Shown: positions 29,850 to 31,186 of the stretch, piece after piece | How the letters are laid out: each line of letters begins with the position of its first letter | Position numbering within the stretch: position 1 is the stretch's first letter | DNA from: a virus | Taxonomy: Duplodnaviria > Heunggongvirae > Uroviricota > Caudoviricetes | IMG/VR virus record: IMGVR_UViG_3300001336_000001 | Span: 42,836-106,835 of that record | Direction: 5' to 3' (one strand) | DNA length: 64,000 bases | Notes under the pieces: generated by a model | The model's input: the letters and a program-made list of their open reading frames with translations, nothing else | What the model was told of the DNA's origin: nothing | Databases searched by the model: none | Position numbers and translations under genes: made by a program

Positions 29850-31186
29850 TTGATTTTTATCAGTGAACTACCCACCCACGGCAGAGCCGATGGGTTGGGC
29901 TTCATGAGTCATCACTCCCACTAACGTGGGCAGTTCGTCATGATTTTTACTGTCAGTCCCTGACAATATATTTCTTAAACTGAAGTTTTTTATATTAATT
30001 GCCGCATTTACATCTCTGTCATGTTCAGCATTACACTTAACACAAGTCCATTCTCTATCTTTTAGAGTTAGCTCTTTGTTAATATAACCACAATTAGAAC
30101 AAGTCTTTGAACTTGGTTCAAATCTACCAATTTTAAGTATATTTGTTCCATACCATTCGGCTTTGTATTCTAACATGGTTACAAAAGTTGACCAACTGAC
30201 ATCTGATATTGCTTGTGCTAAATTATGGTTTTTAATCATACCTGATACATTAAGGTTTTCTAAACTGATTGTTTGGTTCTCACGAACCAGTTTAGTAGAT
30301 ACTTTATGCAAATAATCTTTTCTTTTATTTGTTACTTTTTCATGTAGTTTTGCTAATTTTTGTTTAGTTCTTTTTCCTTTATTTTTAGAGTATTTGCTCT
30401 GAATATATTTTAATTTATCTTGTGCTTTTCTTAAATATTTAGGATTATCGAATACTTCACCATTAGATGTTATTGCAAAATCCTTGATACCTAAATCTAT
30501 ACCTATTGTTGTTTCTTCTTTAATCTTAGGTTTAGATTTATTTTGTTCACCAGTTTCACATAAAATAGAAACAAAATATTTACCTGTAGGTGTTCTACTA
30601 ATAGTAGCTTGTCTTATTTCACCTTTAAGTGGTCTATTAAGAATAATGTCAATACCATTTTTCTTTGTGAATTTAGGTATAACTAATTTACCATTTTCTA
30701 CTTTAACTCTTTGTGGTATATTAAAACTACCACCATTTGATTTCTTTTTAAATTTAGGAAAATCATTTTGTCCTTTAAAGAAAGCTGTATATGCTTTATC
30801 TAAATTAGTTATACTTTGTTGCAATGATTGTGAATTAAGTTCTTTTAACCAAGGTAGCTCTTCTTTTAAAGAAACTAATTGTGAATGTAATTCAAAACAA
30901 GAAAGGTTATGTTTATTACCAGCATAAGCAATCTGTTTAGTTTCAAGAGCAAGATTATATATAAACCTACTAGCACCAATATGTTTATTCAGAAGAACGA
31001 TTTGTTCTTCATTTGGATTAAGTCTATATTTAAAAGCTTTCAACATCATATATAAATATGTAGAAAAACTAAAAAGTTTAAAGAAATAAGAAAATTTATT
31101 TACATTTTATTAAAATAATTTAGATATTTGTGTCGCTTACACCCCACCCACGCTGAAGCGATGAGTGGGCTTTACGCTCACATAAT
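29850..31186 (-). mobile_element. IS200/IS605-family insertion sequence carrying only tnpB (IS1341/IS608-like)
   Basis: On the minus strand: TTAC (plus 31187-31190), then 16 nt, then the left-end hairpin CCCAC...GTGGG (31130-31165). The right-end hairpin (29872-29900) is followed by TCAA (plus 29850-29853). Confidence 0.6.
29868..31049 (-). CDS. tnpB: TnpB (IS605 OrfB-family RNA-guided nuclease)
   Basis: N-terminal MMLKAFKYRLNPNEEQ...FIYN. C-terminal zinc ribbon CSNCGYINKELTLKDREWTCVKCNAEHDRDVNAAINI with the RuvC-III motif. Confidence 0.85.
   Translation of the reverse strand: MMLKAFKYRLNPNEEQIVLLNKHIGASRFIYNLALETKQIAYAGNKHNLSCFELHSQLVSLKEELPWLKELNSQSLQQSITNLDKAYTAFFKGQNDFPKFKKKSNGGSFNIPQRVKVENGKLVIPKFTKKNGIDIILNRPLKGEIRQATISRTPTGKYFVSILCETGEQNKSKPKIKEETTIGIDLGIKDFAITSNGEVFDNPKYLRKAQDKLKYIQSKYSKNKGKRTKQKLAKLHEKVTNKRKDYLHKVSTKLVRENQTISLENLNVSGMIKNHNLAQAISDVSWSTFVTMLEYKAEWYGTNILKIGRFEPSSKTCSNCGYINKELTLKDREWTCVKCNAEHDRDVNAAINIKNFSLRNILSGTDSKNHDELPTLVGVMTHEAQPIGSAVGG

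Follow-up and report, generated by a model that had tools for sequence, protein, structure and literature searches.

A tnpA-less IS605-group element of a probable huge phage, and its candidate TnpB homing into phages without it

Introduction

In IS608 of Helicobacter pylori, DNA guides of 4 nucleotides (nt) lying 5' of the foot of each hairpin read the cleavage sites, with TTAC placed 19 nt from the left hairpin and paired with the guide AAAG, and TCAA placed 10 nt from the right hairpin (PMC3201880). In the ISGst2-type elements of G. stearothermophilus, TnpA and the RNA-guided nuclease TnpB share one 5-nt, AT-rich target-adjacent motif (TAM), and it is established that TnpB cuts the joint between TAM and flank and that the transposon is retained as a result (PMC10055086). 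TnpB also drives IS605 through multicopy plasmid populations without TnpA (bioRxiv 10.1101/2025.02.20.638934), in a study whose text makes no mention of phage, and the Seg endonucleases of T4 perform intronless homing (reviewed in PMC13565253); the same 2026 review regards homing into co-infecting phages as possible in theory. TnpB itself has been noted for genomes of phages and in a survey of megaphages (PMC12607003), with its role in phages so far mostly inferred by analogy with chromosomes and plasmids. Here we analyse 64,000 nt of a Caudoviricetes virus (IMG/VR record IMGVR_UViG_3300001336_000001, positions 42,836 to 106,835; hereafter the window), in which an insertion sequence (IS) with tnpB as its only gene occupies positions 29863-31186 of the minus strand. 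Taken as a whole, the evidence is probably best explained by a tnpA-less IS605-group element whose TnpB homes into related phages that lack the IS.

Results

Anatomy of the element

Judged by its sequence, the segment belongs to the IS605 group within the IS200/IS605 family, as a tnpA-less and non-autonomous member. A first-pass annotation, made from the letters of the DNA and without database searches, had already proposed an IS200/IS605-family element with tnpB alone, and the Pfam domains, the two ends and an intact TnpB bear this out. The parts on which the argument depends are listed here.

31186 to 29863, minus strand: the element, 1,324 bp, starting just 3' of TTTAC at 31191-31187 and ending in TTCAC
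31187 to 31191, minus strand: TTTAC, the target site and likely TAM, outside the element and abutting its left end on the 5' side
31120 to 31186, minus strand: left end, with the guide AAAG (31173-31170) and a hairpin (31169-31143); the inner limit is approximate
29868 to 31049, minus strand: tnpB, 393 amino acids, predicted RNA-guided RuvC nuclease
29863 to 29968, minus strand: omega-RNA-like scaffold core, three stem regions plus the right-end hairpin, covering the last ~33 codons of tnpB
29863 to 29903, minus strand: right end, with the guide GAAG (29903-29900), a hairpin (29899-29871), TAG (29870-29868) and TCAC (29866-29863)
29843 to 29862, minus strand: predicted guide, TGATAAAAATCAAATACAAA, the guide proper most likely being its first 16 nt
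29703 to 29862, minus strand: remnant of a UVR-motif gene, its last 53 codons plus stop (Pfam UVR, E = 1.6e-6)

On the minus strand 5' of tnpB the sequence reads TTTAC / ATTATGTGAGCGT AAAG CCCACTCATCGC TTCA GCGTGGGTGGG, the slash marking the boundary. TTTAC adjoins the left end in all 12 independent copies that have AAAG as the left guide, in keeping with the insertion 3' of TTAC that had been proposed, and the alignment of IS-less alleles to the window holds through the C of TTTAC and diverges after it. TTAC (31190-31187) and the left hairpin were both correctly recognised in the first-pass annotation; the spacing between them is 17 nt, not 16, and AAAG lies among these 17. The hairpin is imperfect, with a bulged T and a T-G mismatch, and folds as single-stranded DNA at -14.5 kcal/mol (z = -4.1 against shuffles); the left end is conserved among copies, and the loop-proximal stem of its hairpin covaries.

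The 3' end of the element reads GAAG CCCAACCCATCGGC TCT GCCGTGGGTGGG TAG TTCAC. Its hairpin (single-stranded DNA fold z = -3.5 against shuffles) adjoins the tnpB stop codon TAG, the cleavage motif TCAC ends 8 nt from the foot of that hairpin, and a 10-mer, CCCACCCACG, is common to both ends of the element. GAAG and TAGTTCAC are invariant in 32 of 32 aligned right ends. The right end had been placed at TCAA (29853-29850), 13 nt off; we place it at 29863, with TCAC, because about 30 independent copies share the terminus ...GTGGGTGGGTAGTTCAC, being alike up to the invariant ...GGGTAGTTCAC and completely divergent, with unrelated flanks, from the next base on, and because a contig from another sample (L201) that has 100% identity with the window over 31263-29863 becomes unrelated exactly there. 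The guide, read earlier from 29849 outward, shifts by the same 13 nt and starts at 29862. Imperfect subterminal hairpins, with compensatory changes among copies, stand at both ends; terminal inverted repeats are absent, as is a target-site duplication, no repeat of flank sequence being found at the right end, and the IS-less alleles place both junctions exactly 3' of TTAC.

Relatives were collected by a scan of viral contigs that yielded 80 loci, the closest (L001-L003) at 92%, 90% and 90% amino acid identity. Across copies, a change in the fourth base of the left guide is matched by a change in the final base of the cleavage site: copies with AAAG have TTTAC, those with AAAA have TTTAT (at least 10 copies) and the one with AAAT has TTTAA; L002 is an exception and L099 is ambiguous. 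At the right end GAAG and TCAC are both invariant, which is consistent with the guide rule and leaves no covariation to score. The covariation of guide and site at the left end is good evidence that an IS608-type TnpA moved elements of this family. The earlier description of the element as IS608-like thus stands for its TTAC target and left site, its AAAG guide, the position of the right site 3' of the right hairpin and the bulged, imperfect hairpins (PMC3201880). It does not extend to the spacings (17 and 8 nt here, against 19 and 10), to TCAC as the right site, to the right guide GAAG, to the extra conserved T before TTAC or to gene order: tnpA lies upstream of tnpB and in the same orientation in IS608, whereas the nearest autonomous relative here has a divergent tnpA, as in IS605. 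No further copy of either end, or of TAM plus guide, was found in the window, and a sigma-70 promoter scan of the element returned sites no more frequent than in shuffles.

No open reading frame (ORF) for a Y1 (HUH) TnpA is present in the element or in the 64-kb window (tblastn with the family TnpA, best E = 0.42), and the left end, about 140 nt from the tnpB ATG, leaves no room for tnpA. Two relatives with about 72% TnpB identity (L016 and L017) carry a divergent ORF of 133 amino acids (Y1_Tnp, E = 3e-33; NCBIfam transpos_IS200), tnpA is also encoded in L097, L104, L109, L031 and L036-38, and the closest bacterial copies, at about 73% identity, lie in metagenome-assembled genomes of Bacteroidota and Saccharibacteria. 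Because tnpA is absent here and kept in relatives, the copy is a non-autonomous derivative that could be mobilised only in trans, and by these sequence comparisons its lineage is that of the IS605 group, not of IS608. It shares with IS1341-type (tnpB-only) elements the presence of tnpB as the only gene between IS200/IS605-type ends, and since other members of its own lineage keep tnpA, 'tnpB-only' is a state and not a lineage.

Other loci of the scan show reduced forms. In the closest TnpB relative the left hairpin is without its 5' arm, the sequence there being ...CTTACATAGAAAGTGGGTGGG... (L001:5860-5920), and that copy has probably been immobilised. Two ORF-less loci span only 208 nt (L036:10926-11134) and 851 nt (L032:10014-10865) from the family left-end motif to the terminus of the right end; they appear to be non-autonomous mini-elements within this family, resembling palindrome-associated transposable elements.

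TnpB, its scaffold and its guide

TnpB contains the Pfam domains HTH_OrfB_IS605, OrfB_IS605 and Cas12f1-like_TNB, scores 346 bits against NCBIfam guided_TnpB (cut-off 100) and, at 415.5, falls just below the stricter cut-off of 425 for IS200_TnpB. About 355 residues align with ISDra2 TnpB (8H1J/8BF8; E = 6e-71), including the motifs GIDLG (D185), SLENL (E264) and HDRDVNAAINI (D336), and the zinc-finger CxxC pairs C307/C310 and C326/C329 align to the zinc residues of ISDra2. The catalytic residues of ISDra2 TnpB we take to be D191/E278/D361. Since the motifs align to the ISDra2 residues, the RuvC site D185/E264/D336 and the zinc finger are intact, and by its residues TnpB is catalytically intact; the degenerate active site that the first-pass annotation would have held against the element is not found. 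The same D-E-D and CxxC...CxxC residues are seen in the ISDra2 structures (8H1J, 8BF8, 8EXA), although ISDra2, unlike the present element, carries tnpA and has a scaffold of unrelated sequence. The TAM of ISDra2 is reportedly TTGAT, unlike TTTAC here.

The predicted scaffold core has four parts: a stem-loop (29968-29948); a long-range stem, CAUGA/UCAUG, with 15-16 double changes per pair; a stem-loop, GCCCAC...GUGGGAG, nested within that stem; and the right-end hairpin. This is the anatomy expected of a TnpB scaffold, and we call the structure omega-RNA-like; its true 5' end may lie further upstream than 29968. When folded, the 168 nt that end 20 nt beyond the right end gave a minimum free energy of z = -4.4. 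For pair counting, 32 homologous right ends were aligned and scored on the window's own minimum-energy structure: 88.9% of cells pair, compared with 36-43% when the partners are slid by 1-3 columns, the paired fraction (not the compensatory changes) being inflated by taking the structure from one member of the alignment. Both sides of the pair have changed in a compensatory manner at 28 of 38 pairs, and the observed covariation score was reached by none of 500 shuffles. The idea that a right hairpin related to the left one overlaps the last tnpB codons as part of an omega-RNA-like scaffold is upheld by these numbers. Rfam held no omega-RNA family matching 29000-32000 at a permissive threshold or the whole window at the gathering threshold; only tRNAs were matched.

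The flank next to the right end is unrelated in every family copy. According to the rule that the TnpB guide is the DNA immediately 3' of the right end (PMC10055086), the guide is predicted to be 29862-29843. The likely TAM is the TTTAC that flanks the left end, so that the TTAC proposed earlier is retained with one T added before it. Within the window the guide is matched only at the right-end junction, where TCAC stands for TTAC; this junction, TTCAC plus guide, is one base off the TAM, which would be the usual self-protection of such an element. In contigs of the same phage without the IS (L202, L203, L204 and L206, described below), a search for TTAC plus guide, as the first-pass annotation had advised, finds ATTAC followed by a perfect guide match of at least 20 nt.

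The arrangement resembles ISGst2-type elements in its 5-nt AT-rich TAM (TTTAT in theirs, TTTAC in this copy, with TTTAT again in its sister copies), in a TAM common to TnpA and TnpB, in a right-end motif unlike the TAM, in an omega-RNA that overlaps the 3' end of tnpB and in the TAM-plus-flank joint as target, here a predicted one (PMC10055086). It differs in that this copy is without tnpA and sits in a probable huge phage, and in that the predicted targets are sister phages, not a sister chromosome.

Alleles with and without the element

Exact-protein look-ups recovered contigs of the same phage from other samples, some carrying the IS and some lacking it.

L199 (SRR1177011): IS-positive, 100% identical to the window over 9.7 kb
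L200/L205 (JGI 3300042952): IS-positive, 99% identical to the window
L201 (ERR4869817): IS-positive, window left flank and identical element, foreign right flank
L202 (GCA_036681025.1): IS-negative
L203 (ERZ28593801): IS-negative
L204 (JGI 3300043326): IS-negative
L206 (SRR25242040): IS-negative

The IS-negative contigs come from at least three samples (L202 and L203, both 12,559 bp, may share one), and their flanks are 97-99% identical to the window. They read ...AATATTTAC / TTATATGACAC...(316 nt altogether)...GAAAATATTAC / TGATAAAAATCAAATACAAATTC...; their UVR-motif gene is intact, with a product of 129 amino acids. In the window the promoter and first 76 codons of this gene are missing, and the remnant is without a start. 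The left flank of the window stops at the first TTTAC and its right flank begins after the second TTAC, the two TTACs being consecutive on that strand, where the motif has a frequency of 0.0049 per nt. The element therefore replaces 316 nt and is not a simple insertion. The precise presence/absence boundaries on which the first-pass annotation had staked its reading do exist, at 31186/31187 and 29863/29862 against the IS-less contigs, although with the loss of these 316 nt. Scans of IMG/VR and of JGI metagenomes with the neighbouring SPFH protein returned relatives at no more than 76% identity and no synteny past the SPFH gene, for which reason they were of no use in looking for an empty site; an exact-protein look-up of a 41-amino-acid UVR remnant found none on record.

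How might the 316 nt have been lost? We favour a route in which copies would have entered at both TTAC sites and then undergone homologous recombination between the 1.3-kb direct repeats, because it requires no unusual chemistry. Alternatively, TnpA strand exchange could have joined one element end with the second TTAC and released a 316-nt circle, and slippage on the 4-nt TTAC would also give the exact product. Slippage on the longer AATATT repeat present at both TTAC sites was considered and rejected: it is 1 nt out of register and would leave ATTAC instead of TTTAC.

In L201 (1402-1826) the foreign flank is joined exactly at the terminus of the right end and encodes the C-terminal part of a DUF2827-like protein. 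This contig looks like another product of recombination between copies, and could also be a second copy, a rearrangement or an assembly chimera. The source of the DUF2827 flank was sought without success in the window, in the retrieved loci and in IMG/VR, while the protein database gave only the same truncated protein; an IS-less version of the site was likewise not found in these collections. In the window itself, the UVR remnant (29703-29870, minus strand) shares the tnpB frame directly past its TAG. Read-through of this TAG into the remnant was dropped as an explanation: no suppressor tRNA was found and the TAG lies within the invariant right end, so that the shared frame is probably coincidence.

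Over all 1,324 bp, the copies of the element in the window, L199, L200 and L201 show no difference. Between the window and L200, 33 of 2,044 flank positions differ (1.6%), a rate at which about 21 differences would be expected in the element and none is observed. In its left flank L200 has the window alleles at 31318 and 31505 and the haplotype of the IS-negative L203/L204 from 31685 outward, with 7 differences to that haplotype compared with 27 to the window; the agreement with L203 thus holds beyond about 320 bp from the element. The same insertion-plus-deletion allele is present on two backgrounds and has therefore been transferred by recombination, with a short conversion tract of the kind that breaks made by TnpB in IS-negative genomes would leave. 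Such recombinational spread fits RNA-guided homing without proving it, and it is in this sense that the role of homing or retention nuclease suggested in the first-pass annotation can be kept: the identical element on two haplotypes and the guide match agree with it, short of proof.

Host phage and neighbourhood

The window has 30% GC, almost all of its genes on one strand and two tRNA arrays. It also encodes proteins of RNA metabolism (the RNB exoribonuclease, the RNA ligase and the two nucleotidyltransferases below). The other features named in the text are these.

18329 to 19879: RNB exoribonuclease
27463 to 29148 and 51292 to 53319: tRNA arrays, 19 tRNA genes by ARAGORN plus two Rfam matches outside those calls
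34105 to 35715, minus strand: protein of 536 amino acids with a type IX secretion system (T9SS) C-terminal sorting domain (Por_Secre_tail, E = 6e-12)
37829 to 39016: RlaP-like nucleotidyltransferase
45957 to 47075: RNA ligase
56305 to 57447: CCA-adding-type nucleotidyltransferase

The T9SS sorting domain hints at a Bacteroidota host, with which the taxa of the nearest bacterial element copies agree, and the phage, an uncultured one, probably infects this phylum. Its only relatives in databases are uncultured phages, 595 and 735 kb in size and without annotation, and the replicon is probably that of a huge phage, genome size not being readable from the window alone. A megablast search of INPHARED with the locus and with 25 kb of the window found no related genome, the sole match being 111 nt within a MITE-like element (MITE, miniature inverted-repeat transposable element). 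TnpB is common in phages: among 50,697 phage records in that collection, 618 contain a relative.

One tRNA array lies about 700 bp from tnpB, and the same array is present in the IS-less strains; the relevance that had been attached to a site beside the array is at most hypothetical. A MITE-like insertion of 141 bp at 29467-29607, with imperfect 11-bp terminal inverted repeats TGATTAA(C/T)CTA, occurs in the window, L199, L202 and L206 and is precisely absent from L200, L203 and L204; a 111-nt stretch of it recurs, at 86% identity, in LR756501/LR756503, an uncultured phage of 735 kb. At ~35858-36169 on the plus strand, opposite to its neighbours and some 5 kb from the element, a gene for 103 amino acids is recorded as T5orf172/MUG113 (GIY-YIG-like) in the identical contig L199, and is possibly a free-standing gene of the homing-endonuclease type.

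Discussion

The element is an ordinary kind of mobile element; what it adds is a natural series of alleles. Beyond the anatomy, the mechanism we propose is conditional, and the ends of the omega-RNA on which it depends are predicted. Processing of the tnpB mRNA would yield an omega-RNA with TGATAAAAATCAAATA(CAAA) as its 3' guide, and the TnpB-RNA complex would cut genomes that carry (T)TTAC followed by a match to the guide. Its targets would be copies of this phage that lack the IS, encountered in co-infected cells or produced after excision by a TnpA acting in trans, and repair of the break from an IS-carrying genome would copy both the element and the 316-nt deletion into the cut genome. The right junction of the element itself would be spared because it has TTCAC instead of TTTAC. 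IS-positive, IS-negative and mosaic (L200) genomes are all present in metagenomes. We tentatively raise the further idea, to which we give somewhat less than an even chance, that a natural gene drive guided by RNA operates here within a phage population, in which TnpB would cut the UVR-motif gene of IS-less phages and spread, together with the 316-nt deletion, between diverged haplotypes without transposition. Such a drive would share with the plasmid TnpB drive and with the T4 Seg endonucleases a nuclease allele that cuts the allele without it, repair that copies the nuclease gene, and independence from TnpA; it would differ from Seg in that recognition is RNA-guided and from the plasmid drive in that the replicon is a phage, the evidence here being population-genetic only.

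Several observations weigh against homing. The -5 position of the TAM is A (ATTAC) in the sampled IS-less alleles, compared with TTTAC in 12 of 12 copies with the AAAG guide, and cleavage of ATTAC alleles could be inefficient. The simple, scarless empty site, TTTAC / TGATAAAA, was absent from every collection searched, because the 316 nt are missing too. Ordinary phage recombination is frequent, as the mosaic single-nucleotide polymorphisms show, and could move the allele without a nuclease, and restorative homing after excision needs a helper, since there is no tnpA in the 64-kb window.

These points lead to a reading that we think unlikely but still the most credible of the alternatives, namely that a host TnpA brought in an element that is now an inert passenger, carried onto two haplotypes by ordinary recombination or hitch-hiking with TnpB uninvolved. 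Mosaic polymorphisms run through both flanks across all seven contigs, the 141-bp indel, at a distance of 265 bp, varies independently of the IS with all four combinations seen, and both the missing tnpA and the -5 mismatch of the TAM in IS-less alleles would suit a passenger. Against a passenger stand a TnpB active site, two ends and a scaffold that are all intact and show no difference between four samples, together with a guide that matches the IS-less alleles perfectly; and the contrast between no difference in 1,324 bp and 1.6% in the flanks points to a very recent spread of a 1.3-kb heterology, which an unassisted crossover would transfer less readily than a break-induced one.

Other roles for an active or a domesticated TnpB seem still less probable than a passive passenger. 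That TnpB and its RNA serve as a weapon, destroying co-infecting IS-less relatives with conversion to the IS-positive state incidental or rare, would use the same target logic as homing, and has parallels in the anti-competitor role known for conjugative plasmids (bioRxiv 10.1101/2025.02.20.638934) and in the discussion of homing endonucleases that kill phages too diverged to convert (PMC13565253); yet the IS-less flanks are 97-99% identical, so that repair from an IS-positive genome should be easy, and the L200 mosaic shows that conversion or recombination took place, and we regard such a weapon as very improbable. Slightly more improbable again is a domesticated, TldR-like TnpB that would use RNA guidance to repress the UVR-motif gene next to it or the tRNA region, a role to which the position of tnpB, 5' of the truncated gene and within ~700 bp of the tRNA array, would lend itself. 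TldR-type proteins are nuclease-dead and without flanking transposon ends (PMC10705468), whereas here the RuvC D-E-D triad, the zinc finger and both transposon ends are intact and the element is absent from sister strains.

For any experiment, the corrected right boundary supplies the right guide and TAM. Circle junctions in which TTCAC is joined to ATTATGTG would indicate a TnpA active in trans. The locus amounts to a natural test set, with a nuclease allele, four guide-matching IS-less alleles and a mosaic that has the identical element on an IS-less background, and with this allele set, homing that passes between co-infecting phages without TnpA can be tested directly. The locus further shows how a TnpB element can take a gene-disrupting deletion along with it through a phage population.

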